Shown piece after piece: positions 1-23,723 of a DNA stretch of 23,723 nt. The position numbers and the translations under genes were made by a program. The DNA is from a virus (Duplodnaviria; Heunggongvirae; Uroviricota; Caudoviricetes). The notes under the pieces are model-generated. The model had not been told where the DNA came from, did no database searches, and worked only from the letters and a program-made list of their open reading frames with translations. The DNA lies in the IMG/VR virus record IMGVR_UViG_2606217111_000003, one strand, 5' to 3'. The first letter of the stretch is position 1. Each line of letters opens with the position of its first letter.

Positions 1-115
1 TTGCTATCCCTCAAAACAGGGGGACACAAAAGACACTATTACAAAAGAAAAAAGAAAAGATTATTCGTCAGAGAATTCTGGCGAATCCTCTGACCAGCCA
101 GAAAACGACCTTTCT
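1..115. other. Partial lambda-type replication origin inside gene O: iteron-like inverted repeat (about 7-24, tccctcaaaacaggggga) followed by an A-rich unwinding tract (about 25-60) and the gaattc region
   Basis: Inverted-repeat iteron motif and A-rich tract lie in frame within the O coding sequence, as in ori-lambda; recognised from memory of the lambda sequence. Confidence 0.6.
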
Positions 116-490
116 GTGGTGAAACCGGATGCTGCAATTCAGAGCGGCAGCAAGTGGGGGACAGCAGAAGACCTGACCGCCGCAGAATGGATGTTTGACA
201 TGGTGAAGACCATCGCGCCATCAGCCAGAAAACCGAATTTTGCAGGGTGGGCTAACGATATCCGCCTGATGCGTGAACGTGACGGACGTAACCATCGCGA
301 CATGTGTGTACTGTTCCGCTGGGCATGCCAGGACAACTTCTGGTCCGGTAACGTGCTGAGCCCGGCCAAACTCCGCGACAAGTGGACCCAGCTCGAAATC
401 AACCGTAACAAGCAACAGGCAGGTGTGACAGCCTGCAAACCAAAACTCGACCTGACAAACACTGACTGGATTTACGGGGTGGATTTATGA
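2..490 (+). CDS. O: Replication initiator protein O, C-terminal part (5' end outside window)
   Basis: Frame 2 is open from the window edge; C-terminus ...NVLSPAKLRDKWTQLEINRNKQQAGV...TDWIYGVDL matches lambda O as I recall it; stop overlaps the P start (ATGA). Confidence 0.9.
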   Translation, partial: CYPSKQGDTKDTITKEKRKDYSSENSGESSDQPENDLSVVKPDAAIQSGSKWGTAEDLTAAEWMFDMVKTIAPSARKPNFAGWANDIRLMRERDGRNHRDMCVLFRWACQDNFWSGNVLSPAKLRDKWTQLEINRNKQQAGVTACKPKLDLTNTDWIYGVDL

Positions 491-1188
491 AAAACATCGC
501 CGCACAGATGGTTAATTTTGACCGTGAGCAGATGCGTCGGATCGCCAACAACATGCCGGAACAGTACGACGAAAAGCCGCAGGTACAACAGGTAGCGCAG
601 ATCATCAATGGTGTGTTCAGCCAGTTACTGGCAACTTTCCCGGCGAGCCTGGCTAACCGGGACCAGAACGAACTGAACGAAATCCGCCGCCAGTGGGTGC
701 TGGCTTTCCGGGAAAACGGGATCACCACAATGGAACAGGTTAACGCAGGAATGCGCGTAGCCCGTCGGCAGAATCGACCATTTCTGCCATCACCCGGGCA
801 GTTTGTTGCATGGTGCCGGGAAGAAGCATCCGTTATCGCCGGACTGCCAAACGTCAGCGAGCTGGTTGATATGGTTTACGAGTATTGCCGGAAGCGAGGC
901 CTGTATCCGGATGCGGAGTCTTATCCGTGGAAATCAAACGCGCACTACTGGCTGGTTACCAACCTGTATCAGAACATGCGGGCCAATGCGCTTACTGATG
1001 CGGAATTACGCCGTAAGGCCGCAGATGAGCTTGTCCATATGACTGCGAGAATTAACCATGGTGAGGCGATCCCTGAACCAGTAAAACAACTTCCTGTCAT
1101 GGGCGGTAGACCTCTAAATCGTGCACAGGCTCTGGCGAAGATCGCAGAAATCAAAGCTAAGTTCGGACTGAAAGGAGCAAGTGTATGA
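487..1188 (+). CDS. P: Replication protein P (DnaB helicase loader)
   Basis: 233 aa, MKNIAAQMVNFDREQMRRIANNMPEQYDEK... is essentially lambda P; start overlaps O stop. Confidence 0.95.
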   Translation: MKNIAAQMVNFDREQMRRIANNMPEQYDEKPQVQQVAQIINGVFSQLLATFPASLANRDQNELNEIRRQWVLAFRENGITTMEQVNAGMRVARRQNRPFLPSPGQFVAWCREEASVIAGLPNVSELVDMVYEYCRKRGLYPDAESYPWKSNAHYWLVTNLYQNMRANALTDAELRRKAADELVHMTARINHGEAIPEPVKQLPVMGGRPLNRAQALAKIAEIKAKFGLKGASV

Positions 1189-1475
1189 CGGGCAAAGAGG
1201 CAATTATTCATTACCTGGGGACGCATAATAGCTTCTGTGCGCCGGACGTTGCCGCGCTAACAGGCGCAACAGTAACCAGCATAAATCAGGCCGCGGCTAA
1301 AATGGCACGGGCAGGTCTTCTGGTTATCGAAGGTAAGGTCTGGCGAACGGTGTATTACCGGTTTGCTACCAGGGAAGAACGGGAAGGAAAGATGAGCACG
1401 AACCTGATTTTTAAGGAGTGTCGCCAGAGTGCCGCGATGAAACGGGTATTGGCGGTATATGGAGTTAAAAGATGA
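1185..1475 (+). CDS. ren: Ren protein (Rex exclusion resistance)
   Basis: 96 aa, MTGKEAIIHYLGTHNSFCAPDVAALTG... matches lambda Ren; ATGA overlap with P. Confidence 0.9.
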   Translation: MTGKEAIIHYLGTHNSFCAPDVAALTGATVTSINQAAAKMARAGLLVIEGKVWRTVYYRFATREEREGKMSTNLIFKECRQSAAMKRVLAVYGVKR

Positions 1476-1500
1476 CCATCTACATCACTGAGCTAATAAC

Positions 1501-1532
1501 AGGCCTGCTGGTAATCGCAGGCCTTTTTATTT
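1501..1532 (+). terminator. Intrinsic terminator (lambda tR2-like): 8-bp perfect stem aggcctgc/gcaggcct, 8-nt loop, then ttttattt
   Basis: Perfect GC-rich inverted repeat followed by a T-run between ren and ninB, the position of lambda tR2. Confidence 0.7.
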
Positions 1533-1548
1533 GGGGGAGAGGGAAGTC

Positions 1549-1989
1549 ATGAAAAAACTAACCTTTGAAATTCGATCTCCAGCACATCAGCAAAACGCTA
1601 TTCACGCGGTACAGCAAATTCTTCCAGACCCAACCAAACCAATCGTAGTAACCATTCAGGAACGCAACCGCAGCTTAGACCAGAATCGAAAGCTTTGGGC
1701 TTGCCTTGGTGACGTCTCTCGTCAGGTTGAATGGCATGGTCGCTGGCTGGATGCAGAAAGCTGGAAGTGTGTGTTTACCGCAGCATTAAAGCAGCAGGAT
1801 GTTGTTCCTAACCTTGCCGGGAATGGCTTTGTGGTAATAGGCCAGTCAACCAGCAGGATGCGTGTAAGCGAATTTGCGGAGCTATTAGAGCTTATACAGG
1901 CATTCGGTACAGAGCGTGGCGTTAAGTGGTCGGACGAAGCGCGACTGGCTCTCGAATGGAAAGCGCGATGGGGAGACAGGGCGGCATGA
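1549..1989 (+). CDS. ninB: NinB (Orf-family recombination mediator)
   Basis: [28 protein letters not shown]... (146 aa) matches lambda NinB; RBS gggagaggg upstream; the in-frame ATG at 1531 is a less likely start. Confidence 0.9.
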
Positions 1990-2168
1990 GACGACAGCGA
2001 CGAAGTATCACCGACATCATCTGCGAAAACTGCAAATACCTTCCAACGAAACGCTCCAGAAATAAACGCAAGCCAATCCCAAAAGAATCTGACGTAAAAA
2101 CCTTCAACTACACGGCTCACCTGTGGGATATCCGGTGGCTAAGACATCGTGCGAGGAATACAAGGTGA
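1986..2168 (+). CDS. ninE: NinE
   Basis: [60 protein letters not shown] matches lambda NinE; ATGA overlap with ninB stop. Confidence 0.85.
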
Positions 2169-2335
2169 TTGACCCAAATCGAAGTTACGAACAAGAAAGC
2201 GTCGAGCGGGCTTTAACGTGCGCTAATTGCGGTCAGAAGCTGCATGTGCTGGAAGTTCACGTGTGTGAGTACTGCTGTGCAGAGCTGATGAGCGATTCGA
2301 ATAGCTCGATGCACGAGGAAGAAGATGATGGCTAA
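2165..2335 (+). CDS. ninF: NinF (Cys-rich small protein)
   Basis: (V/M)[43 protein letters not shown]... matches lambda NinF; start taken as GTG at 2165 overlapping the ninE stop; in-frame ATG at 2123 is the alternative. Confidence 0.75.
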
Positions 2336-2939
2336 ACCAGCGCGAAGACGATGTAAAAACGATGAATGTCGGGAATGGTTTCACCCTGCATTCGCTAATC
2401 AGTGGTGGTGCTCTCCAGAGTGTGGAACCAAGATAGCACTCGAACGACGAAGTAAAGAACGCGAAAAAGCGGAAAAAGCAGCAGAGAAGAAACGACGACG
2501 AGAGGAGCAGAAACAGAAAGATAAACTTAAGATTAGAAAACTCGCCTTAAAGCCCCGCAGTTACTGGATTAAACAAGCCCAACAAGCCGTAAACGCCTTC
2601 ATCAGAGAAAGAGACCGCGACTTACCATGTATCTCTTGCGGAACGCTCACGTCTGCTCAGTGGGATGCCGGACATTACCGGACAACTGCTGCGGCACCTC
2701 AACTCCGATTTGATGAACGCAATATTCACAAGCAATGCGTGGTGTGCAACCAGCACAAAAGCGGAAATCTCGTTCCGTATCGCGTCGAACTGATTAGCCG
2801 CATCGGGCAGGAAGCAGTAGACGAAATCGAATCAAACCATAACCGCCATCGCTGGACTGTCGAAGAGTGCAGGGCCATCAAGGCGGAGTATCAGCAGAAA
2901 CTCAAAGACCTGCGAAACAGCAGAAGTGAGGCCGCATGA
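2325..2939 (+). CDS. ninG: NinG / Rap (Holliday-junction resolvase-like)
   Basis: 204 aa, [34 protein letters not shown]... matches lambda NinG. Confidence 0.9.
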
Positions 2940-2982
2940 CGTTCTCAGTAAAAACCATTCCAGATCACAAGGGAGAAGGCGC

Positions 2983-3471
2983 ATGGGCATAAGAGAACTA
3001 AACCTCACCAAAGAACAGCACGAGTGGCTGAATGGCTGGCTTGAACTGTGGGGCGCATGGGTTTATTCAGGTCGTCTGGAAAAGCGCATGAGCAGCGTAA
3101 TAGCTAAGTTCATGGAGAGCGTAGAGCCGGGAAGAGTTATGACAAGGCCAATGTGTAATGATGATGATGGAATGTTGATTTCTCAGGTCGTCGATTCCGT
3201 CATGTACATTGACAAGAAAGCCTTTGGCATCCTCCTCAGCTACTACGCCCACGGCTCTTCCAAGCACGCCATTGCATCTTACTATCATCGCGTCGCAAGA
3301 CCTCGCAAGATGTTATGCCGGGGCGGCGGGCGCATTCAAAAACCATCGCTCGCAACCTGTCGACGGGAAGTTGACGAAATCCTCAATGCCTCGTTGTTTA
3401 TGATTTACCCGGTTCTGGATAGTGCGTTTAAAAACCGGAAACGTGTAGAGAAAATTAAACATGTAGCATAG
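2983..3471 (+). CDS. Q: Late-gene antiterminator Q, non-lambda type (P22 gp23 / phage-21-or-82-like family)
   Basis: 162 aa from ATG 2983 with RBS gggagaagg; WLELWGAWVYSGR and Cys/His-rich core resemble the antitermination-Q family; sits between nin genes and the lysis cassette; not similar to lambda Q. Confidence 0.75.
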   Translation: MGIRELNLTKEQHEWLNGWLELWGAWVYSGRLEKRMSSVIAKFMESVEPGRVMTRPMCNDDDGMLISQVVDSVMYIDKKAFGILLSYYAHGSSKHAIASYYHRVARPRKMLCRGGGRIQKPSLATCRREVDEILNASLFMIYPVLDSAFKNRKRVEKIKHVA

Positions 3472-3477
3472 AACGTG

Positions 3478-3506
3478 TTGACATCATTGAGCAAATGAGC
3501 AACACT
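3478..3506 (+). promoter_or_regulatory. Candidate late promoter (PR'-like): ttgaca -35 with a weak -10 about 17 nt downstream
   Basis: Consensus ttgaca hexamer 7 nt after the Q stop; the -10 match is poor; position is right for the Q-modified late promoter. Confidence 0.3.
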
Positions 3507-3516
3507 ATTCGCATAA

Positions 3517-3559
3517 GCTGCCGTTAGTGACTCTTAAGTTGCAACGGTGGCTTTTTTTA
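3517..3559 (+). terminator. Candidate tR'-like intrinsic terminator (stem 3517-3525/3543-3551 with two G-U pairs, then ttttttta)
   Basis: Hairpin followed by a 7-T run just downstream of the candidate late promoter. Confidence 0.45.
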
Positions 3560-3562
3560 TTT

Positions 3563-3637
3563 GGGTCAGTCGTATAAAGGTCATTACGGAAGGCTGTTAA
3601 CCTTCTTATCGTGGTTCGAGTCCACGCTGTCCCGCCA
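3563..3637 (+). tRNA. tRNA-like gene, anticodon loop ctGTTaa (Asn-type), non-canonical (one U-U mismatch in acceptor stem, 3-bp D-stem); possibly a degenerate or phage-specific tRNA
   Basis: Hand-folded cloverleaf: acceptor gggtcag/ctgtccc, perfect anticodon stem gaagg/ccttc, T-arm cgtgg-ttcgagt-ccacg, 3' gCCA encoded. Confidence 0.5.
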
Positions 3638-3642
3638 AATAT

Positions 3643-3718
3643 GCTGGTTTAGCTCCAATGGTAGAGCGGTCGCCTTGTAAGCGAATGGGTAGCGGTTCAA
3701 GTCCGTTAACCAGCACCA
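3643..3718 (+). tRNA. tRNA gene, anticodon TGT (Thr-type)
   Basis: Hand-folded cloverleaf: perfect acceptor gctggtt/aaccagc, D-arm gctc-caatggta-gagc, anticodon loop ctTGTaa, T-arm agcgg-ttcaagt-ccgtt, discriminator A and CCA encoded. Confidence 0.65.
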
Positions 3719-3836
3719 TAACTGAGCCGTAGCCACTGGATGTCCTGAATTCATCAGTGATAGTTATGCTGCGGTCTTCTTTTTCTCCCTTCCCAATATA
3801 AGAACTACGCAATCCGTTACTGGCGGAGGCGTTGCT

Positions 3837-4052
3837 ATGAAATCAATGGACAAAATCTCAACTGGCATTGCCTACGGAACATCCGCTGGTAGTGCGGGAT
3901 ACTGGTTTTTGCAGTGGTTGGATCAGGTCAGTCCATCACAGTGGGCTGCGATTGGGGTGCTTGGAAGCCTTGTGTTGGGCTTTCTCACCTATCTGACAAA
4001 TCTGTACTTCAAAATCAGAGAAGACAGAAGAAAGGCTGCGAGAGGTGAATAA
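3837..4052 (+). CDS. S: Pinholin S (phage-21 S21 type) with dual start (Met1 antiholin, Met4 holin)
   Basis: 71 aa, [71 protein letters not shown]; two TM segments; RBS ggcggagg. Confidence 0.9.
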
Positions 4053-4549
4053 TGCCTCCATCATTACGAAAAGCCGTTGCTGCGGCTATTGGTGGCGGGG
4101 CTATTGCTATAGCATCTGTGTTAATCACTGGCCCAAGTGGTAACGATGGTCTGGAAGGCGTCAGCTACATACCATATAAAGATATCGTTGGTGTATGGAC
4201 TGTATGTTACGGGCATACCGGAAAAGACATTATGCTCGGTAAAACGTATACCGAAGCAGAATGCAAAGCCCTCCTGAATAAAGACCTTGCCACTGTCGCC
4301 AGACAAATTAACCCGTACATCAAAGTCGATATACCGGAAACAACGCGCGGCGCTCTTTACTCGTTCGTTTACAACGTTGGTGCTGGAAATTTCAGAACAT
4401 CGACGCTTCTTCGCAAAATAAACCAGGGCGATATCAAAGGCGCATGTGATCAGCTACGGCGCTGGACATACGCTGGCGGTAAGCAATGGAAAGGGCTGAT
4501 GACTCGCCGTGAGATTGAGCGTGAAGTCTGTTTGTGGGGGCAACAATGA
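4052..4549 (+). CDS. R: SAR endolysin (phage-21 R21-type lysozyme with N-terminal signal-anchor-release domain)
   Basis: N-terminal Gly/Ala-rich weakly hydrophobic segment [20 protein letters not shown] followed by a lysozyme-like domain; start overlaps the S stop. Confidence 0.9.
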
Positions 4550-5877: not shown

Positions 5878-6429
5878 ATGGCACTCACAGACAAGCAAGA
5901 GATGTTCTGTCGCGAGTACCTCATCGATTTAAACGCCACGCAAGCGGCTATTCGGGCGGGGTACAGCGCAAAAACAGCCAACCGTACCGCATCCGAAAAC
6001 CTGTCAAAACCTGACATCAAGTTAAGAATCGCCGAACTGAAAGCGCAACGCAATGATCTTGTTGGTATTAATGCAGAATATGTACTTAATCGCCTTATTG
6101 AAATCGACCAGATGGATGTGCTTGACATTCTCCTGCAAAACGGTGAGCTAAAACCCATTAAAGACTGGCCTAAGGTATGGCGCACAACGTTATCAGGAAT
6201 GGATGTCGTGGAGATGGCATCCGCAGATAGCGCCGCACTTCTGAAGAAAATCAAATGGCCTGATAAGGTTAAAAACCTTGAGTTGCTCGGGCGTCATGTT
6301 TCTGTTCAGGCGTTTAAAGACAATGTCAAAAATGAAGTGACTGGTGCTGACGGAGGACCAGTCAGAACAGAAATTACCAACTTAACGCCGGAGCAGGTTG
6401 CAGAAGCGTATAGAAAAATGATGGGCTAA
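5878..6429 (+). CDS. Terminase small subunit
   Basis: 183 aa, N-terminus [34 protein letters not shown] typical of small terminase HTH domains; directly precedes the large terminase. Confidence 0.85.
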
Positions 6430-6431
6430 GT

Positions 6432-8054
6432 ATGCCGTTACCATTCCCCTTCGATTTTAAAAATCCTGATTACCAGATGGTTTTTGAATGGCGGATGGAA
6501 CGCTTACAGCGCATTCGCCAGAACCCTGAAATATTGCCAGCACTAAAACAGTTTTACCGAACCAATCCGGCTCAGTTCATCATCGACTGGGGCATGACAA
6601 CGGACCCGCGTAATATTGATTATGGCCTGCCGGTGACCATTCCGTTTTTACTCTTCCCTAAGCAGGAGGAGTGGATCCACTGGATTATGGAACGCTGGAG
6701 CAATCGGGAGAATGGTATTACCGAAAAATCCCGTGAAATGGGGCTCAGTTGGACCGCGATCGGACTGGCATGCTCGCTTTGTCTCTTCAACAAAGAAATG
6801 GTTATCGGTTTTGGCTCCCGTAAAGAGGAATACGTCGACAGCACTGGTGACCCGAAAGCATTGTTCTGGAAGGCGCGCAAGTTCGTGGAAACGCTACCTG
6901 TAGAGTTTCGCGGTTCGTGGAGTGAGAAGAAGCACGCGCCATATATGCGTGTTGAGTTTCCTGAAACTGGTGCCGTTATCAAAGGCGAGGCTGGCGATAA
7001 TATTGGTCGTGGTGACCGTACCACGCTTTATCTGGTTGATGAGGCTGCATTCCTTCAGCGTCCTCTGCTGATTGATGCGGCGTTGTCACAAACGACGCGT
7101 TGCCGTATCGACCTGAGTTCAGTTAACGGCATGGCTAACCCGTTCGCTCAGAAGCGTCATGGCGGGAAGATACCGGTATTCACATTCCACTGGCGGGATG
7201 ATCCTCGCAAGGATGAAGAGTGGTATCGCAGGGAATGCGAGAAAATCGATAATCCGGTGGTGGTGGCACAGGAACTTGATCTGAACTACAGCGCATCAGC
7301 GGAAGGCGTCCTGATTCCATCCGAATGGGTACAGGCTGCCGTTGATGCGCATATCAGACTGGGTATCCAGCCAACAGGCAAACGACTTGGCGCGATGGAT
7401 GTCGCTGATGAAGGCAGGGACAAAAATGCCTTTTCCACCCGTCATGGCTTCCTCCTGGAAAATGTGCGGGAATGGTCCGGTGTGGGCAGCGACATTTATC
7501 AGTCCGTCGAGAAGGTTTTCGGCTTTTGCGAACAGGACAACCTCGAAGAGTTTCGCTTTGACGAGGACGGGCTGGGCGCTGGCGTTCGCGGCGATGCACG
7601 CGCTATCAACGAACTGCGTAACGCTGCGCGTCGACCGTCAATACTTGCCACACCGTTTCGAGGTAGTGGCGCGGTATTTGATCCGGATGATGAAGCTGTT
7701 CGCGGGGACAACGGGCAAGCCGCACGTCTGAACAAGGACTTCTTCGCTAACGCCAAAGCCCAGAGCTGGTGGCGGTTACGTAAACTTTTTCAGAATACCT
7801 GGCGCGCCGTGGTTGAAGGTATGGCTTACAACCCGGACGAAATCATCTCAATCAGCAGTAGCATGGCACTCAAAGATAAACTCATCATCGAGCTTTCGCA
7901 GCCGACCTATTCCATTAATGGTGTGGGAAAAATAGTTATTGATAAACAGCCTGATGGAACCCGATCGCCAAACCTTGCCGACTCGGTGATGATCAACTAT
8001 GCCCCAATGAATTCAGCCCTGAACATCTGGGAGCTGCTAGGGAGACAGGCCTGA
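6432..8054 (+). CDS. Terminase large subunit
   Basis: 540 aa; Walker-B-like LYLVDEAAF; size and position between terS and portal. Confidence 0.85.
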
Positions 8055-13479: not shown

Positions 13480-14030
13480 GTTTCAAAAGCGGTGTAACAA
13501 CGAGGGTGGATAACGCTAAGGCCATTCTGGATGCGCTCAGGTCGTTAACCAAAAAAGATGTGCTGGTCGGCATCCCTTCGGAAGACAGCGAGCGGGATGA
13601 TGTTCCGTTTGGTAATGCGGGCATCGGTTACCTCAACGAATACGGCTCACCAGAGCAGAACATCCCGCCACGACCTCACCTGATCCCCGGCGTTAAATCG
13701 GTAGAGGAACAGACGTTGCCGCAGCTCAAAACAGCGGCGCAGGCTGCGCTTGATGGAAATGCGGCGGGGGCGGAAAGAGCGCTCAACCGCGCCGGAACGC
13801 TGGCCGCTAATGGCGTCAGGCGTTACATGACTATTACCGGCTTTACACCGCTTGCTGATAGCACCGTTGAAGCCCGCGCGCGTCGAGGGCGTAAAGGGGC
13901 GAAAGCGGAACTTGCCCGGCGTGCTGCTGGCGAATCTCCCGGAACCGATCTGGCGAAACCATTAATTGACACCGGGCAATATCGCAGAGCTATTACCCAT
14001 GTAGTGAGGGATAAAGATGCCGACTCTTGA
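13476..14030 (+). CDS. Head-tail joining / neck protein (putative)
   Basis: 184 aa, ATGA coupling to the upstream gene. Confidence 0.5.
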
Positions 14031-14406
14031 TGTAACAGATGTGCTTTTTGACCCCGATTTTTGCGACTTCAATTTGTGGGTAACACGCCGAGTGCAAACG
14101 GTGGATGAGGACGGGATCGGCAGCGACAGCGAAGTTAAAAAGCAGTTTGCCGGAGTCGTAACTGTTGATCGCTCTCTGGAAAACCGCCGTATGCAGGCAG
14201 GGCAGGTAATCAGCGGTGCAATTCTGATTGTGACGACTGAGCGACTGACGCAGGGACAGACTGGCCGTGATGCCGATATCGTGACGTATCAGGGCCGTGA
14301 TTATCGTGTGACCTTCGTCGACCCGTATACAGCTTATGGTGCCGGATTCGTTCAGGCGCATTGTGAGTTGCTGCCGTTTGATGGGGGAATTCCGGTTGAG
14401 CAATAA
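14017..14406 (+). CDS. Tail completion / neck protein (putative)
   Basis: 129 aa, overlapping upstream and downstream genes in the structural block. Confidence 0.5.
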   Translation: MPTLDVTDVLFDPDFCDFNLWVTRRVQTVDEDGIGSDSEVKKQFAGVVTVDRSLENRRMQAGQVISGAILIVTTERLTQGQTGRDADIVTYQGRDYRVTFVDPYTAYGAGFVQAHCELLPFDGGIPVEQ

Positions 14407-14944
14407 CACCAGTACAGAGCGCGGATGGCTGATACCAACCAGTGGCGATCCGGATTATGACGAAGCGCTCGACAGGCTGTTAAGCCAGTGGATGCGTAAC
14501 GTTTCCGGTCTGTCTGCCGGGATGGTTCGCCCGCGCTGGCAGAAAGAGCAGCCGCCACTGCTACCGGCTGAAACGAACTGGTGTGCGTTTGGGGTTATCG
14601 GATGGTCAGGTGATGACAGTCCGGCATTCACCAGACAGACCGATGATGGCTCTAAGCTCTGGCGGCATGAAACGATTGAGTGTATGGCTTCGTTTTATGG
14701 TCCGGCGGGGATGGTGTATGCGTCCCGGTTTCGTGACGGTATATCTGTACCGCAGAACAATGCAGCACTGAATGCGCTGGGGCTGTCTCTTGGCGATTAC
14801 ACAGGTCTGACCCCCTTCCCTGAACTTATTAATCAGCAATGGGTCCGCCGCTACGATATGACGGTGCGCCTGCGCCGGAAGGTTGTGCGCGAGTACGGTA
14901 TTAAATCGCTGGTGGAAGCACCAGTCATCTTTTTCGGAGATTAA
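14381..14944 (+). CDS. Tail-associated protein (putative sheath terminator/stabiliser); start uncertain (14336, 14381 or TTG 14396)
   Basis: ORF immediately upstream of the sheath gene; no clean RBS. Confidence 0.5.
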   Translation: MGEFRLSNNTSTERGWLIPTSGDPDYDEALDRLLSQWMRNVSGLSAGMVRPRWQKEQPPLLPAETNWCAFGVIGWSGDDSPAFTRQTDDGSKLWRHETIECMASFYGPAGMVYASRFRDGISVPQNNAALNALGLSLGDYTGLTPFPELINQQWVRRYDMTVRLRRKVVREYGIKSLVEAPVIFFGD

Positions 14945-14947
14945 GCT

Positions 14948-16093
14948 ATGGCACAGGGCTTGCCTGTATCAAACGTTGTTAATGTTGATGTGATCATGTC
15001 GCCGCGTGCAGCATCAGGGCGAAATTTTGGTGCATTACTCATTCTCGGCCCGTCCACAATCATTCCGGTAAGTGAGCGCATTCGCCGTTATTCTGCCGCG
15101 GAAGATATTGGAAAAGATTTTGGCGTGGAATCACCAGAATATAAGGCTGCGCAGGTGTTTTTCTCACAATCACCGAAACCTCAGGAGGTTTTTGTTGGTC
15201 GTTGGGTGAAAACGAAGGGTGACAGCGAACAGGCCACGCCTGAGACGCTGGAGCAGGCTGTGAATGCCATGCTCGATTATACTTCATGGTATGGGCTGGG
15301 GATTGCAGACGATGAAGATATTCCGGATGCAGACTGGCTGAAAGTGGCTGCGGCGATCGAATCCTCTTCTGTAAGCCGTATTCTGGCGATTACGACAAGC
15401 GATGATAAATGCCTGCAGACTGCATCCAGCGATGATTTGGCATCAAAACTGAAAACCGCCGGATATTCACGCAGTTTTATTCAGTATTCATCGGGTAATA
15501 AATACGCTGCGTTATCTGCATTTGGCCGGGTATTCACGGTTAATTTCAATGGCAGTAATACCGCGATTACGCTCAAGTTTAAGCAGGAGCCGGGTGTCGG
15601 GTATGAAACACTGACAGTCAGCCAGGCATCGGCACTTGATGCAAAAAACTGCAATGTATTCGTGTACTACCAGAATGATACGGCTATCCTCCAGCAGGGA
15701 GTGATGGCTAACGGCGATTTCTTTGATGAACGCCACGGCCTGGACTGGTTACAGAATTATGTGCAGACCAACCTCTATAACCTGCTTTATACCAGCACCA
15801 CGAAAGTTCCCCAGACTGAAGCCGGTATTACCCGACTGTTATCAAATGTTGAAAAATCACTGGATCAGGCCGTTCAGAATGGACTGATTGCTCCGGGCGT
15901 ATGGAACGGGGGCGACCTTGGTCAGTTGTCATCAGGTGACACACTGCCCAAAGGTTATTACGTATACGCCCAGCCGCTGGATGAACAGGCACAATCAGAA
16001 CGTGAAGCCCGTAAGGCTCCGGTGATTCAGGCTGCAATAAAACTTGCAGGCGCGGTTCATTACGCTGACGTACAGATTAATGTTGTTCGCTAA
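14948..16093 (+). CDS. Tail sheath protein (contractile tail)
   Basis: 381 aa directly followed by a 146-aa tube-sized gene, a chaperone with frameshift and the tape measure: the canonical sheath-tube-chaperone-TMP order. Confidence 0.65.
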
Positions 16094-16103
16094 GGGGAAG
16101 TGA

Positions 16104-16544
16104 ATGTCTACCTATTCTTTTATGGATGTCACTGCGACGCTGACCGGCCCGACCGGTTCGATTGACCTCGGGTACGGTTCTGCAAGTTCTGAAGAGGGGA
16201 TTGTGGTTGCGATGGGCGGTCCTAAAAACACCATGACCATCGGTGCTGATGGTGAAGTGATGCACAGCCTCCATGCAGATAAAAGCGGGACGATTACCGT
16301 TAACCTTCTGAAGACATCACCGACAAATAAAAAATTGTCGCTGGCGTATAACGCACAGAGCCAGTCTTCTGCCACATGGGGGAATAACGTTATCGTGATC
16401 CGCAACAAGGTCAGCGGCGACATCATCACGGCACGCAGTGTTGCGTTCCAGAAACAACCGGATAATGCCAACGCTAAAACCGGTAATACGATGCCGTGGG
16501 TGTTTGACTGCGGCAAGATTGACCAGGTTCTCGGGGAGTTTTAA
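16104..16544 (+). CDS. Tail tube protein
   Basis: 146 aa, between sheath and tail assembly chaperone; RBS ggggaag. Confidence 0.65.
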   Translation: MSTYSFMDVTATLTGPTGSIDLGYGSASSEEGIVVAMGGPKNTMTIGADGEVMHSLHADKSGTITVNLLKTSPTNKKLSLAYNAQSQSSATWGNNVIVIRNKVSGDIITARSVAFQKQPDNANAKTGNTMPWVFDCGKIDQVLGEF

Positions 16545-16547
16545 TAC

Positions 16548-17000
16548 ATGGAGTTCGAAATCAAAGGCGTGAAATATCGCGTGGCAAAACTCAGCGTTTT
16601 TGACCAACTGAAAGTGACCCGCAAACTTCTGCCGGTGCTGGCAGGAATGATGTCAGATTTCGGGAGCATTCGCTCCCGTTTGCCTGCTGATGGCAAAATC
16701 GACACCGTGAAATTCGAGCAGTTAAAACCGGTGTTTGAAACCATGCTCCCGCGTATCGCTGAGGAACTGTCTTCCCTGACCGAAGATGACACCAGTGCGA
16801 TTATTCATCCCTGTCTTGCGGTGGTATCGCGGCGTCATATGGACGGATGGGTTCCGGTATTTACCCAGGGCGAACTGATGTTTGATGATATTGACTTGCT
16901 GGTCATGCTGCAGCTGGTGGCGCGGGTGGTCGCCGATTCGCTGGGAAATTTTTTGCCTACACCCCTTACCAGCACGACGCAGAGCCTGCAACAGGGCTGA
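16548..17000 (+). CDS. Tail assembly chaperone (G-like, 0-frame product)
   Basis: 150 aa directly upstream of the tape measure gene; contains a slippery site near its 3' end with an open -1 frame extension. Confidence 0.7.
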   Translation: MEFEIKGVKYRVAKLSVFDQLKVTRKLLPVLAGMMSDFGSIRSRLPADGKIDTVKFEQLKPVFETMLPRIAEELSSLTEDDTSAIIHPCLAVVSRRHMDGWVPVFTQGELMFDDIDLLVMLQLVARVVADSLGNFLPTPLTSTTQSLQQG

Positions 17001-17188
17001 CGTTTAACAGCCTGCCGGACGGGCTGTCCTACCTTCTCAATCCGGTTGACGCCGGGTTAATTCCTTATACAGCACTTAAAGATGGCTCTGTCGATTTGTA
17101 CGATATTGCTCTTTTGAATGACCATCTGGCGGTAAAAGCGGATAACCAGCGGCGCATTGAGAAATGGAGAGAGGATAATGAACGCTGA
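16946..17188 (+). other. Programmed -1 ribosomal frameshift site (a_aat_ttt / t_ttt_ttg) and 81-codon -1 frame extension (GT-like chaperone fusion)
   Basis: Heptamer A AAT TTT is phased with the chaperone frame at 16946-16952; the -1 frame is open from there to TGA 17186-17188 and overlaps the tape measure start. Confidence 0.6.
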
Positions 17189-19166
17189 AACTATTAAAGA
17201 TTTCCTCGTCTCGCTTGGCTTCAGTGTGGATGATGCAGGAGCGAAAAAGTTCGGTTCTGTCCTCGCCGGTACAACTGCAAATGTCATCAAAATGGGGCTG
17301 GCCGTTGAAGGAGCCGCGCTGTCCGTGGTGGCCTTCACGGCTAAGATCGCCTCCGGTCTGGATAATCTTTACTGGGCGTCACAGCGCACTGGAGCGACAG
17401 TCCAGGGAATTCAGTCTATTGGCTATGCGGTTTCGCAGGTTGGCGGCAGCGTGGACGCTGCGCGATCTTCTCTGGAAAGCCTCTCCCGGTTTATTCGTAA
17501 TAATCCCGGTGCAGAGGGATTTCTGAATCGCCTGGGGGTACAGACACGGGATGCCAGCGGTAACATGCGTGACATGGCCGCTATTTTTACAGGTGTAGGC
17601 CAGAAGCTCAGCGGCATGCCGTATTACCGGGCTAACCAGTATGCGCAGATGCTGGGCATTGACGAAAATACCCTTATGGCGATGCGTCGGGGTGTGGGTG
17701 GTTTCTCCGGGCAGTACAGCGCAATGGCGAAAGCTATCGGCTTCAATGCTGACGAGGCGGCCAGAAGCTCCAACAAATTTATGACCTCCCTGCGTGAGTT
17801 TAGCGCGATGGCAGGCATGGCCCGTGACAAAATCGGCTCTAATCTTGCGGGTGGGCTTGCGGGTTCGCTGGACCCCCTGCGCCGCCATATCCTGGACAAC
17901 TTCCCTCGTATCGAGCTGACCCTGACGAAAGCCATAAAAGGCATTCTGGCGCTCGGGGATATTATCGGGCGGCTGTTCTTCAGACTGATTGAAGGAACAT
18001 CAGGTCTCATCACCTGGTGGCAATCGCTGGATAAGCAAACGCGGCAGTTGATCTCGCTGTTTGGCGCACTGACGATTGCGCTGCGCATTCTGAACAGTAC
18101 GTTCTGGATGTCGCCGATTGGCCTTATTACTGCGCTGGCGGCGGGGATTGCCCTTCTGTGGGAGGACTATCAGACCTGGAAGGAAGGCGGCGACAGCCTG
18201 ATTGACTGGGGCAAGTGGAAACCGGAGGTCGATGCCGCGTTGAAGATGGTTCGTGACCTTAAAACAACCGTTAACGACCTGGCGAAAGCGCTGGCGAAAC
18301 TGCTCAATATTGACCCCAAATCATGGTCCCTGAAGTGGGATTTCAGCAACTTCATCGACCAGATGGGCGAATTCAGCAAAATGCTGAACATGATCGCCGA
18401 CCTGCTCAACGCTATCAAAGATGGCCGCTGGGCTGATGCCGTCAGCATCAGCAAACAGATACTTAATCAGGGCAGCGAAAATCCGTCAGCGATGCCGATG
18501 GTTACAGACAGCGCTAACAGTACTGCCGACTGGATTAAAGAGCACTGGGGATTCGATCCTCGCAGCGTGGGCCGGACGGTACGCGGCTGGTTTGGTGATG
18601 ATGAGCCGGAACAATATGCACAGGCTACGAAACGAGGAGAACGGAATAACAATCCGGGAAACCTTAATTTTGCTGGTCAGGCAGGGGCTTCTCTTGAACG
18701 CCCGGGCGGGCGATTTGCCAGATTTGAAACTGCTTTTGATGGATTACGGGCTCTTGCTCGTCAGTTAATGCTGTACGCCGGACGGGGAATAAACAGTGTG
18801 GAGAAAATTATCTCTACCTGGGCACCTGCGTCTGATAATAACAACACAACTGCGTATATCAGGGCTGTATCGCAACGACTGGGAGTGGATCCCCGGGCTG
18901 CCCTGAATATGAGCGATCCGCAAACCATGTCAGCATTGATGAGCAGCATTATCCAGCATGAAAATGGAAGAAATATCTATTCCCGAGAGCTGATTAATAA
19001 GGCTGCCGTGGCAGGAATTAGTGGCAAAGTGACAGAGGTTAACCAGCAAAATACCTACCACATTTACGGTGGCGGAGATCCGCACGCTGTCGGTAATGAG
19101 GTTGCACGTCGGCAACAGTCTGCAAATGCTCAGGTCATGCGAAGTAATCAGGTGAGGGTGGGTTAG
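17178..19166 (+). CDS. Tail tape measure protein
   Basis: 662 aa from ATG 17178 (RBS ggagagagg; in-frame ATG 17157 is the alternative); Ala/Gly-rich helical N-terminus with internal hydrophobic segments; follows the chaperone pair. Confidence 0.85.
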   Translation: MNAETIKDFLVSLGFSVDDAGAKKFGSVLAGTTANVIKMGLAVEGAALSVVAFTAKIASGLDNLYWASQRTGATVQGIQSIGYAVSQVGGSVDAARSSLESLSRFIRNNPGAEGFLNRLGVQTRDASGNMRDMAAIFTGVGQKLSGMPYYRANQYAQMLGIDENTLMAMRRGVGGFSGQYSAMAKAIGFNADEAARSSNKFMTSLREFSAMAGMARDKIGSNLAGGLAGSLDPLRRHILDNFPRIELTLTKAIKGILALGDIIGRLFFRLIEGTSGLITWWQSLDKQTRQLISLFGALTIALRILNSTFWMSPIGLITALAAGIALLWEDYQTWKEGGDSLIDWGKWKPEVDAALKMVRDLKTTVNDLAKALAKLLNIDPKSWSLKWDFSNFIDQMGEFSKMLNMIADLLNAIKDGRWADAVSISKQILNQGSENPSAMPMVTDSANSTADWIKEHWGFDPRSVGRTVRGWFGDDEPEQYAQATKRGERNNNPGNLNFAGQAGASLERPGGRFARFETAFDGLRALARQLMLYAGRGINSVEKIISTWAPASDNNNTTAYIRAVSQRLGVDPRAALNMSDPQTMSALMSSIIQHENGRNIYSRELINKAAVAGISGKVTEVNQQNTYHIYGGGDPHAVGNEVARRQQSANAQVMRSNQVRVG

Positions 19167-19753
19167 TGGATATTCTCTCTACACTTTTTCATCAGCAGAG
19201 CAGAAAAATAGGAATGATTGTTCCCAGTGTTGTTATTTCAGAGAAGCATACAGATATGCTTGAAATAACAGAGCATCCGGTAGAGGTCGGGGCTGCTGTC
19301 GCTGATCATGCCTATAAAAAACCGTCAGAAGTGGTGATGGAGGTTGGTTTCGCCGGTGGCGGCGCATTGCTGGATTTTGCCAGTAACCTGACGGCTACCA
19401 GCCTGCTCGGCCTGAGTCCTCAGCAGACGTATCAGGAGCTACTGGATCTGCAGGAAAGCCGTATCCCCTTCGATGTGGTAACCGGTAAACGGCTGTACAG
19501 CAACATGTTGATCCGGGCGCTGGAAGTGACGACGGACAAGACAACCGAAAACGTCCTGTCCGCCGTCCTCACCCTGAGGGAGGTCCTTATCTCCCGGACA
19601 CAGCAGATCACCGTCGCTGATAAAACCAACATGAAGGAAGGGGCCAGCACGTCGGCGGTACAGAACAGCGGCAACAAAACCACAAAGCCTCCAGATACTT
19701 CACTGCTGAAAAGCATCACGGGTAACGTGGTGTCATTACTGGGAGGCGGATAA
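19166..19753 (+). CDS. Post-tape-measure tail protein (function unassigned)
   Basis: 195 aa, ATGA overlap with tape measure stop; structural-module GC content. Confidence 0.6.
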   Translation: MDILSTLFHQQSRKIGMIVPSVVISEKHTDMLEITEHPVEVGAAVADHAYKKPSEVVMEVGFAGGGALLDFASNLTATSLLGLSPQQTYQELLDLQESRIPFDVVTGKRLYSNMLIRALEVTTDKTTENVLSAVLTLREVLISRTQQITVADKTNMKEGASTSAVQNSGNKTTKPPDTSLLKSITGNVVSLLGGG

Positions 19754-20055
19754 TGACAATTCAGGAAATTCCGCTGACAGCGGACAACCAGCAGTTCAGC
19801 ATCGTCCTGGGTGGTGTCACCTGGCGGATTAGCATCATATGGCGCGATCCTTACTGGATTATGGACCTGCAGAACGACAGAGGGGAGCCGGTAATCTCCG
19901 GTATACCTCTCGTCACTGGCGCTGACCTGCTGGCGCAGTACGCCTGTATGGGACTTGGTTTTAAGCTGTTGGTGGTCTGCGATGACAACACACAGGATTA
20001 TCCCACGAAAACTGACCTGGGCGGGCGCAGTCATTTACTGGTATCAACGGAGTAA
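19753..20055 (+). CDS. Post-tape-measure tail protein (function unassigned)
   Basis: 100 aa, ATGA overlap with the upstream gene. Confidence 0.55.
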   Translation: MTIQEIPLTADNQQFSIVLGGVTWRISIIWRDPYWIMDLQNDRGEPVISGIPLVTGADLLAQYACMGLGFKLLVVCDDNTQDYPTKTDLGGRSHLLVSTE

Positions 20056-20057
20056 GC

Positions 20058-21125
20058 ATGACACAGAACTGGATGAGACATTTCGAGCTGCAGCTTGTGG
20101 ACGGGAACGGTCAGGGAATTGAGCTAAGTGATTTCAAAGTCACCTTTACGATCGACTGGTTCAACATCAGCAGCGCGTCCCGGGTAGGGACTATCAAAAT
20201 TTATAACCTCTCGGCAGATACTGTGAACCGAATTACCGGGCAGGAGTTTTCGAAAGTGCGTCTGATTGCGGGTTACGACGGTATCGCGCCGGAGGTGTCG
20301 GCAAGCGATGTCGGGACCGTGCGGGAGGTTGATGCGGCGGACGTGGGCCAGAGTGATGGCCGCAACTACGGACTGATTTTCAGCGGTGAAATTCGCTACT
20401 CGGTCACAGGAAAAGACAGCCCGGTTGATTCCTACGTCCTGATTCAGGCAGCCGATACAGATCTGGCTTTTGCCACCAGTATAACCTCACAGACGCTGGC
20501 TGCCGGTTACACGGTCGCTGATGTGAACCGTGCGCTGATGAAAGACTTCGAAGCCAAAGGTGCGACCGAAGGCCTGACGCCTGAAATGCCTGCTACTGTA
20601 TTCCCCCGGGGGCGGGTACTCTTTGGCATGACGCGGCATCTTATGGATAATGTAGCCGGGCAATGTGGCGCAACATGGCAATTCGTGGATGGTCAACGCC
20701 AGATGGTGGCGAATAATGAATATGTTCACGAAGCGATTGTGCTCAACAGCGCTACCGGGCTTATTGGCATGCCGCAGCAGACTATCGGTAACGGCGTAAA
20801 CGTCCGCGCGCTTATTAATCCGAACATCCGGGTTAACGGGCTCATTCAACTGGATCAGGCTTCAGTGTATCGTACCGCGTTGTCGAACAACGATATCGCG
20901 ATGGCCGGTGGGCAGATCACCGACCAGAACACGGACGGAAATATTACGCTAAGCGGCACCACATCGCAGCCTGCCAGCATCGCAACGGATGGCGTTTATA
21001 TTGTGCGTGGGATTATGTACACTGGCGACACAAGGGGGCAGGCGTGGTACATGGATATGATGTGTGAAGCACGTGGCGCGGCTGATCTACTTTCGTCCTC
21101 AGCGCAGCAAAGGATTTATTCATGA
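20058..21125 (+). CDS. Tail/baseplate-associated protein (hub-like candidate)
   Basis: 355 aa, 2-nt gap from the upstream gene; last high-GC structural gene before the AT-rich island. Confidence 0.55.
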   Translation: MTQNWMRHFELQLVDGNGQGIELSDFKVTFTIDWFNISSASRVGTIKIYNLSADTVNRITGQEFSKVRLIAGYDGIAPEVSASDVGTVREVDAADVGQSDGRNYGLIFSGEIRYSVTGKDSPVDSYVLIQAADTDLAFATSITSQTLAAGYTVADVNRALMKDFEAKGATEGLTPEMPATVFPRGRVLFGMTRHLMDNVAGQCGATWQFVDGQRQMVANNEYVHEAIVLNSATGLIGMPQQTIGNGVNVRALINPNIRVNGLIQLDQASVYRTALSNNDIAMAGGQITDQNTDGNITLSGTTSQPASIATDGVYIVRGIMYTGDTRGQAWYMDMMCEARGAADLLSSSAQQRIYS

Positions 21126-21469
21126 AGCGTATGAAGTTAGTTTTGACAATTTCGTTATTATTTTCTTGTTCAGCAGCTTTTGCTGATTTGCAATGCGGCG
21201 GATATCTACTTCATGCAGCTGATAACGGTTGGACAAAAATCAACGGTGAGCAGGTAACATCACAGAAGATTACGTTTCTTGGTAAGAAAGATGACTGGGA
21301 CAACGTTAAAACTAACATGGGCCTGATGCCTTCTCGCGATGGCAACAATTACGGCTTTGAGTTTGTGAAGCGTAACGGAAAAGCTTTCCTGAACGTCCAG
21401 CTTCTGCAGAACAGCATGGATGCGCCTAAAATCATCGGATCATTCCCTTGTAAAAAGGCGTTACGCTAA
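21122..21469 (+). CDS. Small secreted protein (115 aa) with N-terminal signal peptide, two Cys in the mature part; function unknown
   Basis: MKRMKLVLTISLLFSCSAAFA then polar mature domain; AT-rich; ATGA overlap with the last tail gene. Confidence 0.6.
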   Translation: MKRMKLVLTISLLFSCSAAFADLQCGGYLLHAADNGWTKINGEQVTSQKITFLGKKDDWDNVKTNMGLMPSRDGNNYGFEFVKRNGKAFLNVQLLQNSMDAPKIIGSFPCKKALR

Positions 21470-21506
21470 AGTTTGATGTCAATCTTCCGAGATGAGCGCT
21501 TTAAGG

Positions 21507-21535
21507 TTGACGAGATATTGTTCAAAGTTCACAAT
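21507..21535 (+). promoter_or_regulatory. Candidate sigma-70 promoter (ttgacg, 17-nt spacer, cacaat) upstream of the 257-aa gene
   Basis: Hexamers read directly from sequence, about 30 nt upstream of the ORF start; modest -10 match. Confidence 0.35.
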
Positions 21536-21564
21536 CACAATCCCTTTAGTAAGAGAAATAATCC

Positions 21565-22338
21565 ATGGCGGCAGGCATCCCATTAGAAAAAGCGCAAAAA
21601 TATATTGAACAATTCAATGCGCTTCTATTGGATAGGGAAAGTTTAGATCCCTTCACTGAAAAGAAAATTCGAGAGGAACTTTCTGTCTCTCCAACGCCTG
21701 CTACCAACATTGCACTATCTTATCTGGATGCAATAACCGGAAAGATTGAAAGCGCGTTACGTTATCTCAGGATAAGCCTAGAAGTAAACGATGTAACGTT
21801 GGCAATGCACTATCATCACATTTTAATTAATACATTTAGCTATAATGAACTCAAGGATGTCTATGTCCCGCTGGCAAAGAAGTATCGGACAAAACTCTTT
21901 AGTCACAACGCATACAGTTGGGCGTACCGTTGCGGCGAGCGTGAACAGTTAAAATTTTATATGGAAGAGCACATTAAGCTTCTTTCTGAATCAGAAGGCA
22001 GGAGTAATGCTATGAAGCACAAAGAAGAACTCCTTGCAGAAATGGATAATTTCTATAGCGCCACACAGTGCTCGAAGGAACAGTTCCAGACCTTAGCATC
22101 CATAATCTGGGGCTTGCTAAGTGAATACAAGGCTACGACAGGTTTCGTTCAGCTTAGTGGAAGCGGTTGCTATGTTGTTGATATTAAAAATCTTGAGCCT
22201 AAAACTATTGCCAAAATGAACTTCGACTTGGCTGATAGAGTCTGCGCTGAATCTAAACTGGATGATTGTTCCCTGTTAGCTAGATTTACCTCTCCGCGTC
22301 AGTTGCATACGGGGGTGAGCTACCATGTCGGTAACTAG
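21565..22338 (+). CDS. Hypothetical protein (257 aa), AT-rich island gene; function unknown
   Basis: Long uninterrupted ORF in AT-rich DNA; 14-nt overlap with the downstream 93-aa ORF suggests an operon; no motif I can assign. Confidence 0.6.
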   Translation: MAAGIPLEKAQKYIEQFNALLLDRESLDPFTEKKIREELSVSPTPATNIALSYLDAITGKIESALRYLRISLEVNDVTLAMHYHHILINTFSYNELKDVYVPLAKKYRTKLFSHNAYSWAYRCGEREQLKFYMEEHIKLLSESEGRSNAMKHKEELLAEMDNFYSATQCSKEQFQTLASIIWGLLSEYKATTGFVQLSGSGCYVVDIKNLEPKTIAKMNFDLADRVCAESKLDDCSLLARFTSPRQLHTGVSYHVGN

Positions 22339-22606
22339 CAATCAGATTCTCGATACCGCTCGATTATGTCTGTCTGAAAATATTGAGAGTGGATTTCGAA
22401 GCGCTATCTCAAGGGCGTATTACAGTATGTTACATGAGTCTATTAGCTCACTTACTGCCATACCGCATTTTACCCATGAGCATCACAAAAATACTGTGGG
22501 TTATATGTCAACGCCCTCAGAGTGCAAATCAGAGCCATACCCGACAAATACACTGAAATCCCTAGCTTTCGTACTTCGCCAGTGGCGGGATGCTAGAAAT
22601 GAATAG
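22325..22606 (+). CDS. Hypothetical protein, 3'-truncated by IS2 (93 aa as encoded; stop codon TAG is the first three bases of the IS2 left inverted repeat); contains an R-x6-H segment (SRAYYSMLH)
   Basis: ORF overlaps the 257-aa gene and runs without a stop into the IS2 end at 22604. Confidence 0.5.
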   Translation: MSVTSNQILDTARLCLSENIESGFRSAISRAYYSMLHESISSLTAIPHFTHEHHKNTVGYMSTPSECKSEPYPTNTLKSLAFVLRQWRDARNE

Positions 22607-22817
22607 ACTGGCCCCCTGAATCTCCAGACAACCAATATCACTTAAATAAGTGATAGTCTTAATACTAGTTTTTAGACTAGTCATTGGAGAACAGATGATT
22701 GATGTCTTAGTAGACTGGCCCCCTGAATCTCCAGACAACCAATATCACTTAAATAAGTGATAGTCTTAATACTAGTTTTTAGACTAGTCATTGGAGAACA
22801 GATGATTGATGTCTTAG
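22604..22817 (+). repeat. Perfect tandem direct repeat, 2 x 107 bp, each unit the IS2 left inverted repeat plus leader and first 16 nt of insC
   Basis: Units 22604-22710 and 22711-22817 are identical base for base; canonical IS2 carries this segment once. Confidence 0.9.
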
Positions 22818-23167
22818 GGCCGGAGAAACGCAGACGGCGTACCACACAGGAAAAGATCGCAATTGTTCAGCAGAGCTTTGAACCGGGGATGACGGTCTCC
22901 CTCGTTGCCCGGCAACATGGTGTAGCAGCCAGCCAGTTATTTCTCTGGCGTAAGCAATACCAGGAAGGAAGTCTTACTGCTGTCGCCGCCGGAGAACAGG
23001 TTGTTCCTGCCTCTGAACTTGCTGCCGCCATGAAGCAGATTAAAGAGCTCCAGCGCCTGCTCGGCAAGAAAACGATGGAAAATGAACTCCTCAAAGAAGC
23101 CGTTGAATATGGACGGGCAAAAAAGTGGATAGCGCACGCGCCCTTATTGCCCGGGGATGGGGAGTAA
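22802..23167 (+). CDS. insC: IS2 transposase OrfA (InsC, HTH DNA-binding protein)
   Basis: 121 aa, [56 protein letters not shown]... matches IS2 InsC. Confidence 0.95.
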
Positions 23168-23723
23168 GCTTAGTCAGCCGTTGTCTCCGGGTGTCGCGTG
23201 CGCAGTTGCACGTCATTCTCAGACGAACCGATGACTGGATGGATGGCCGCCGCAGTCGTCACACTGATGATACGGATGTGCTTCTCCGTATACACCATGT
23301 TATCGGAGAGCTGCCCACGTATGGTTATCGTCGGGTATGGGCGCTGCTTCGCAGACAGGCAGAACTTGATGGTATGCCTGCGATCAATGCCAAACGTGTT
23401 TACCGGATCATGCGCCAGAATGCGCTGTTGCTTGAGCGAAAACCTGCTGTACCGCCATCGAAACGGGCACATACAGGCAGAGTGGCTGTGAAAGAAAGTA
23501 ATCAGCGATGGTGCTCTGACGGGTTCGAGTTCCGCTGTGATAACGGAGAAAAACTGCGAGTCACGTTCGCGCTGGACTGCTGTGACCGTGAGGCACTGCA
23601 CTGGGCGGTCACTACGGGCGGCTTCAACAGTGAAACAGTACAGGACGTCATGCTGGGAGCGGTGGAACGCCGCTTCGGCAACGAGCTTCCGGCGTCTCCA
23701 GTAGAGTGGCTGACGGATAATGG
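23125..23723 (+). CDS. insD: IS2 transposase OrfB (InsD, DDE catalytic domain), partial; expressed as an OrfAB fusion by -1 frameshift at aaaaaag (23119-23125)
   Basis: From GTG 23125 in the -1 frame: [43 protein letters not shown]...; runs to the window edge. Confidence 0.9.

Follow-up and report, generated by a model that had tools for sequence, protein, structure and literature searches.

Does the left end of IS2 stand twice in perfect tandem in the genome of a prophage-bearing bacterium, or only in the sequence that was assembled from it? The question is raised by positions 22604–22817 of the window, by which we mean the whole stretch of DNA analysed here, 23,723 nt in length. Tandem Repeats Finder detects in it a perfect two-copy tandem repeat at 22604–22710 and 22711–22817 (period 107, 2.0 copies, 100% matches, no indels), and the two 107-nt copies are likewise identical by a separate repeat search and by direct string comparison. 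The pair is the sole direct repeat of at least 25 nt in the whole 23.7-kb window, and a perfect repeat of 107 nt is far beyond chance. The flanking bases fix its register: the first unit is preceded by A where the unit ends in G, and the second is followed by G where the unit starts with T. A shift of the register is thereby excluded, and the duplicated segment is IS2 bases 1 to 107, exact at both limits. Within these 107 positions each unit has the left end TAGACTGG..., followed by the leader and by the opening 16 nt of insC, ATGATTGATGTCTTAG. The canonical order runs from ...GATGTCTTAG into GG(C/A)CGGAG in seven reference IS2 copies and in an independent assembly of the same locus. Since canonical IS2 passes directly from position 107 to position 108, one unit in the window is surplus. 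The preliminary description of this locus had given the same coordinates, identity and unit content (left inverted repeat, leader and 16 nt of insC), all of which are correct by the repeat searches and the string comparison; it had also stated the canonical continuity at 107/108 and the presence of one extra unit, with which the seven reference copies and the assembly of the same locus agree.

Unit 1 (22604–22710, plus strand) would be, under an artefact model, the terminal k = 107 overlap of a unique phage contig. It holds a left inverted repeat (IRL) of 42 bp at 22604–22645 and an OrfA operator, residues 39–48, at 22642–22651, both on the plus strand, together with the P_IRL region, the leader and, from 22695, the first 16 nt of insC. 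Unit 2 (22711–22817, plus strand) consists of IS2 positions 1–107 again, with its IRL at 22711–22752, and is joined to the rest of IS2. The 42-bp length of the IRL, the promoter P_IRL and the OrfA operator at residues 39–48 follow the published description of IS2 (PMC3299598). A promoter scan of the units, of a simple kind that does not model the weak extended −10 promoter P_IRL, predicted nothing. The junction between the units makes a chimeric ORF of 21 codons (22695–22760, plus strand), which uses the insC start codon and reads into the second IRL; it is present only if the duplication is real, and no function is implied.

The IS2 body that follows (22711–23723, plus strand) covers positions 1–1013 of the element and is ended by the window edge, leaving the right end out of view. 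It contains insC, or orfA (22802–23167, plus strand), encoding the 121-aa helix-turn-helix DNA-binding regulator of IS2 (Pfam HTH_Tnp_1, E=1.8e-19), and the N-terminal part of insD, or orfB (23125–23723, plus strand), which is cut by the window end and matches Pfam HTH_21 (E=5.9e-11) and the start of the rve DDE core (E=1.5e-11). Between the two lies the A6G window (AAAAAAG; 23119–23125, plus strand), identified by its sequence, whose role in programmed −1 frameshifting has been described (PMC3299598); RefSeq labels the reference IS2 copies with 'programmed frameshift'. Membership in IS2 is borne out by the left end, which reads TAGACTGGCCCCCTGAATCTCCAGACAACC... as in the seven reference copies, known polymorphic sites aside, and by orfA (HTH) and orfB (DDE/rve) joined through the A6G −1 window, with orfB ended by the window edge. 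Set against canonical IS2 of E. coli K-12, a member of the IS3 family, the window agrees in the left end, the leader, insC, the A6G window and the start of insD, and differs by one extra copy of positions 1–107 in front; the right end is outside the window.

The body is 99.8% identical to many copies in complete genomes, being K-12-like at position 32 and of a variant type at 777–993. Positions 1–776 match K-12-type IS2 copies except for one synonymous change. The K-12-like base at IS2 position 32 is an A (window 22742), and a private synonymous G is present at IS2 position 337 (window 23047; GAA to GAG in insC). Among the 23,299 places at which complete E. coli genomes carry IS2, none matches the 1,013 nt exactly, and the best reaches 99.8%. 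Judged by its sequence, the body is a natural allele. We also considered a chimeric IS2 produced from a collapsed repeat, with a K-12-like 5' part and a variant 3' part; natural alleles at 99.8% are common, and the mosaic pattern is at most weak evidence for such a chimera.

Insertion site and the same locus in other assemblies

The backbone of the window is an E. coli prophage, in which a lambdoid O/P replication and lysis module is followed by terminase, head, tail and baseplate genes. The prophage part (1–22603) is a hybrid of this lambdoid replication/lysis module with a myovirus-type structural module (Pfam E217_gp27, E217_gp31_N, Phage_Tube_PhiTE and Pam3_gp18), and the nearest phage records, Escherichia phage vB_EcoM-689R2 and Salmonella phage SEN34, give partial matches only. 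The first 20 kb of the window reach at most 97.9% identity to any complete E. coli genome. The 2.6 kb to the left of IS2 are 100% identical to prophage remnants in several complete genomes without IS2 at this site, and the empty site in NZ_CP080146 reads ...GCTAGAAATGAA|GCTGACTATG. In strain PK8276, from which the latter sequence derives (positions 1–4060 of our locus L001), the identical baseplate segment stands directly after an integrase/early-gene block at tRNA-Thr, near proA. PK8276 lacks the 20 kb in which the window carries its lysis, terminase, head and tail genes, and its prophage is therefore a deleted or mosaic remnant.

IS2 cuts short a phage ORF (22325–22606, plus strand), reducing it from 131 aa in its intact form to 93 aa, with a TAG stop codon supplied by IS2 bases 1–3. 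The intact 131-aa ORF, found in the uninterrupted prophage (L001, 6326–6721), matches phrog_5176, a family of unknown function, at E=9e-40, and a Pfam search with it returned no family. RefSeq leaves this ORF unannotated in NZ_CP080146, where a gap between coding sequences extends over locus positions 6340–6780. The left copy of a 5-bp target-site duplication, ATGAA, is located at 22599–22603 (plus strand). Its right copy lies outside the window; a scan for the right-hand side of the insertion retrieved it in L023, a contig from a sibling IMG genome, whose right junction reads ...GGGGCAAATCCA ATGAA GCTGACTATG. The 41-bp right inverted repeat and the completed 5-bp target duplication are thus found in the sibling contig, not in the window, and the 400 downstream positions of L023 show no mismatch to the empty-site prophage. 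An exact look-up of the truncated ORF recovered the same insertion in short-read assemblies of Logan sample ERR14002508, of seven other samples and of an ENA metagenome (ERZ28565915), all it led to being contigs that break off at the edge of IS2. The insertion of IS2 into the small phage ORF is real, ordinary and shared, and carries the 5-bp ATGAA duplication.

The shared insertion allows the duplication to be compared between assemblies. IMG/VR contig L022, recovered by a scan for the junction of flank and IS2, is identical to window positions 13572–22710 (100%, 9,139 nt, 0 mismatches) and carries the same insertion, but its sequence, ...GATGTCTTAG|GGCCG, joins position 107 directly to 108 and lacks the duplication. 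A nested structure is therefore not reproduced within the same lineage, L022 being canonical. It is possible, despite the canonical L022, that the window records a private recent event in its own strain. Other short-read assemblies of the insertion stop close to the element's edge, the Logan contig (k=31) after IS2[1..30] and the ENA metaSPAdes scaffold (k=55) after IS2[1..55]. Sibling contig L023 contains IS2 positions 475–1331 of the K-12 type, whereas the IS2 of the window is of the variant type, with 11 differences at 777–993 and flanks that are 100% identical. Because it differs at 11 sites from the IS2 on the same flank in L023, the body in the window probably belongs to another IS2 copy.

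Two further observations concern the assemblies as such. The mismatch of alleles at one site means that at least one draft contig has probably walked into a different IS2 copy, or else that nesting or gene conversion has taken place. At the other end of the prophage, the IMG/VR and Logan contigs start at approximately 4127 and 4608 (window positions), among the lysis genes, a multi-copy region of E. coli; the assembly behind the window spanned this lysis-region repeat, which broke the other two.

A probable untrimmed overlap at a contig join

The duplication is probably not a feature of the genome, and is best read as a k = 107 overlap left untrimmed at the join of two contigs. An assembly artefact had been named in the preliminary description as an alternative to nesting; it is now the likelier of the two, as the unit length and both boundaries fit an untrimmed overlap of this size. 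In a de Bruijn graph of the SPAdes type built with k = 107, the unique phage contig would end with the first 107 bases of IS2, at the vertex where the IS2 copies converge, and the IS2 repeat contig would start with the identical 107 bases. If the two pieces were then abutted with the overlap kept, during scaffolding, path export, reference ordering or finishing, a perfect tandem of IS2[1..107] would result. The true locus would in that case be a single ordinary IS2 in the small phage ORF with its ATGAA duplication, for which an insert of 1,336 bp is predicted. The repeat, its exact boundaries, the canonical form of the same locus elsewhere and the contigs that stop k bases into IS2 are all observed; the source assembly at k = 107 and the untrimmed joining are what we infer, and the value of k is taken from the repeat itself only.

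The boundary between the units, 22710/22711, coincides with the predicted end of a unique k = 107 edge and the predicted start of the IS2 repeat edge. The repeat starts at the boundary between unique and multi-copy DNA and its copies are 100% identical, as an artefact of this kind would have them, and 107 is odd, as de Bruijn k values are. The spacing formula of Unicycler, as we take it to be, yields the series 27, 47, 63, 77, 89, 99, 107, 115, 121 and 127, on which 107 lies. A literature search found no published list of Unicycler k values. The assembler is described as using ten k values that span 20–95% of the read length with a maximum of 127, and SPAdes contigs as carrying overlapping ends that need removal (PMC5481147). 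The k-length overlaps known from contigs of SPAdes-type graphs, such as untrimmed circular contigs, share with the present case a perfect repeat of odd length that starts from a repeat boundary and is absent from an independent assembly, and in other assemblies the contigs of the locus break off k or k−1 bases into IS2. The present case differs in that the repeat is internal to the contig and not at the two ends of a circular one, and it needs a non-standard joining step.

The ends of the window bear on how it was assembled. Both lie in the middle of genes in repeat-prone DNA, the lambdoid O/P genes and IS2 insD, the former occurring in 3,233 genomes with up to five copies each. This suggests that the window is a whole short-read contig. 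Such a contig nevertheless extends 1,120 nt into a multi-copy insertion sequence, which implies that a joining or extension step acted exactly at the duplication. The variant IS2 allele to the right of the junction fits IS2 sequence appended from elsewhere.

Other observations count against the untrimmed overlap. Mainstream assemblers, Unicycler included, trim such overlaps, and the junction is absent from complete E. coli genomes even though many of these are Unicycler-built. The 23.7-kb window contains no Ns and no second 107-nt duplication. Recovery of k from the window ends is suggestive at most. The left end misfits a k = 107 edge, the nearest sampled variant being at base 109, not 108. 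The right end at IS2 position 1013 equals 906+107, and site 906 is polymorphic, a fit that coincidence would give approximately 5% of the time; it further needs a co-resident 906C allele with identical downstream sequence, which exists and is rare. Three observations, namely the lack of database matches, a sister contig in canonical form and the difference between the alleles, would be expected just as much if a nested insertion had occurred very recently and privately.

Possible real duplications of the left end

We consider it possible, though doubtful on balance, that the structure is real, i.e. that the window shows a natural IS2 whose two tandem left ends are spaced by 107 bp, in a nested form or in one collapsed to 1,438 bp. 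The nested form, which the preliminary description had put forward as a second IS2 inserted at position 107 of a resident copy, is mechanistically sound, but it finds no support outside the window, L022 being canonical and the junction absent from the searched collections. We judge it unlikely that the resident copy did receive, between its positions 107 and 108, a second IS2 of another allele with the same orientation. An IS2 minicircle from elsewhere in the genome would have integrated there, duplicating CTTAG (positions 103–107), a route to which we give the same low credence. The full structure would consist of IS2[1-107], an inner IS2[1-1331] and IS2[103-1331], approximately 2.67 kb in all (an insert of 2,672 bp), of which the window would hold the first 1,120 nt. 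The inner right repeat would then lead into CTTAG + GGCCGGAG, so that the IRR is followed by CTTAGGGCCGGAG, whereas a non-nested element would have its IRR followed by ATGAAGCTGACTATG, i.e. ATGAA + GCTGACTATG. Beyond the end of the window, which falls at inner position 1013, would lie all three hallmarks: the right end of the inner copy, the repeated CTTAG and the continuation of the outer copy.

Several properties of the locus are those that nesting would produce. The first base of the duplication is the terminal base of IS2, as at a junction made by transposase, and the body allele differs from that of the IS2 at this locus in the sibling, as expected of an inner copy that came from another locus. 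The 5-bp target duplications seen for IS2 are varied (GTTAG, AAGTG, CCAAC, GTGAA, AAAAA, ACGAT, AGCCC and ATGAA), and GTTAG resembles CTTAG. IS2 is reported to prefer targets close to intrinsically curved DNA, and a maximum of curvature lies in the element's own P_IRL region, at approximately position 60 (PMC3299598). The rarity of the structure would be explained by its instability, if homologous recombination occurs between the long direct repeats. With known nested insertion sequences the locus shares a complete left end preceded by internal sequence of an insertion sequence, joined exactly at the terminus; the defining features of such nesting, which would here be the inner right end, the CTTAG duplication and the resumed outer copy, fall outside the window, and no other example of the junction was found.

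The k-like length is the main point against nesting: insertion would have to fall on the one of 1,331 possible positions that gives an odd and widely used k value, for which the prior is a few percent at most. Against it stands also the sister contig L022, 100% identical and without the duplication. We searched for the 107|1 junction with a query whose part to the left of the junction was kept to 27 nt, less than the megablast word size, which prevents a normal IS2 from matching both halves. The exact junction was found at none of the 20,603 IS2 left-end places in 5,426 complete E. coli genomes and at none of the 5,746 such places in plasmids; it is thus missing from the approximately 26,000 IS2 left ends in finished replicons. 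Three contig collections were equally negative, the 36-nt junction sequence GATGATTGATGTCTTAGTAGACTGGCCCCCTGAATC having no exact match in IMG/VR viral contigs, in 185,579 species-representative (GTDB) genomes or in JGI metagenome contigs. A collection of gene positions has no record of the ORFs (36, 54 and 58 aa) that run across the junction. The right junction predicted by the nested model, ATATAGGGGCAAATCCA|CTTAG|GGCCGG, has no match in viral contigs, and our literature search returned no described case of IS2 within IS2.

Nor is position 107 a hotspot of insertion. The sequence of approximately 20 nt upstream of the IS2 left end was matched at about 92% in 188 records, and these matches are chance similarity; the three that were inspected lie in host DNA with no relation to IS2, namely in a prophage HTH gene, upstream of yejO and in the tauA region. 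One further locus, L015, in which IS2 lies beside a fragment of another IS3-family element, is not a case of IS2 within IS2.

It is very improbable that the window shows a real IS2 derivative of 1,438 bp in which the left end is doubled in tandem and a second full copy is lacking. Such a derivative would have arisen, with the same slight probability, by recombinational collapse of a nested structure or by duplication in place through replication slippage or unequal exchange, and it predicts an insert of 1,443 bp from flank to flank. It agrees with everything visible in the window, and is the very product expected of recombination between the 1.2-kb direct repeats of the nested form. Its lack of database matches, the canonical form of L022 and the coincidence with a k value weigh against it as they do against nesting. 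A duplication in place finds no microhomology at the endpoints, requires slippage to begin at IS2 base 1 by coincidence and does not predict a body allele that differs from the resident copy in the sibling assembly. Given the lack of microhomology and an IS2 body that is not the resident allele, simple duplication in place is less likely than nested insertion.

The structure is not a transposition intermediate: the junction of an IS2 minicircle or (IS2)2 dimer (IRR, a spacer of 1–2 bp, IRL) resembles it in that an IS2 left end is abutted to IS2 sequence, but here internal position 107 takes the place of the right inverted repeat, and no junction of the Pjunc promoter type is formed (PMC3299598).

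Consequences under each reading

If the duplication is the untrimmed overlap that we favour, its lesson is practical: where a perfect tandem repeat has an odd, k-like length and starts exactly at the end of a multi-copy element, it ought to be taken for a graph overlap that was not trimmed, and annotated neither as a rearranged insertion sequence nor as a new small ORF. A real structure would give the element two donor-inactive recipient IRLs, two weak P_IRL promoters and two OrfA operators (residues 39–48 of each unit), and the 21-codon ORF at 22695–22760 would stand upstream of the true insC. By the published transposition pathway (PMC3299598), step I could link the right end to either of the two left ends. 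Use of the inner left end would regenerate normal IS2 minicircles, and use of the outer one would propagate the 1,438-bp derivative. Effects on transposase expression and end usage, which the preliminary description had raised, apply only if the structure is real. The locus would then offer a natural test of left-end choice in figure-of-eight formation, and of whether a doubled weak promoter and operator alter transposase expression. Neither reading opens a long-standing question; a real duplication would be a rare and unsurprising nested or rearranged copy of a much-studied insertion sequence, of modest interest for end choice and promoter control in the IS3 family.
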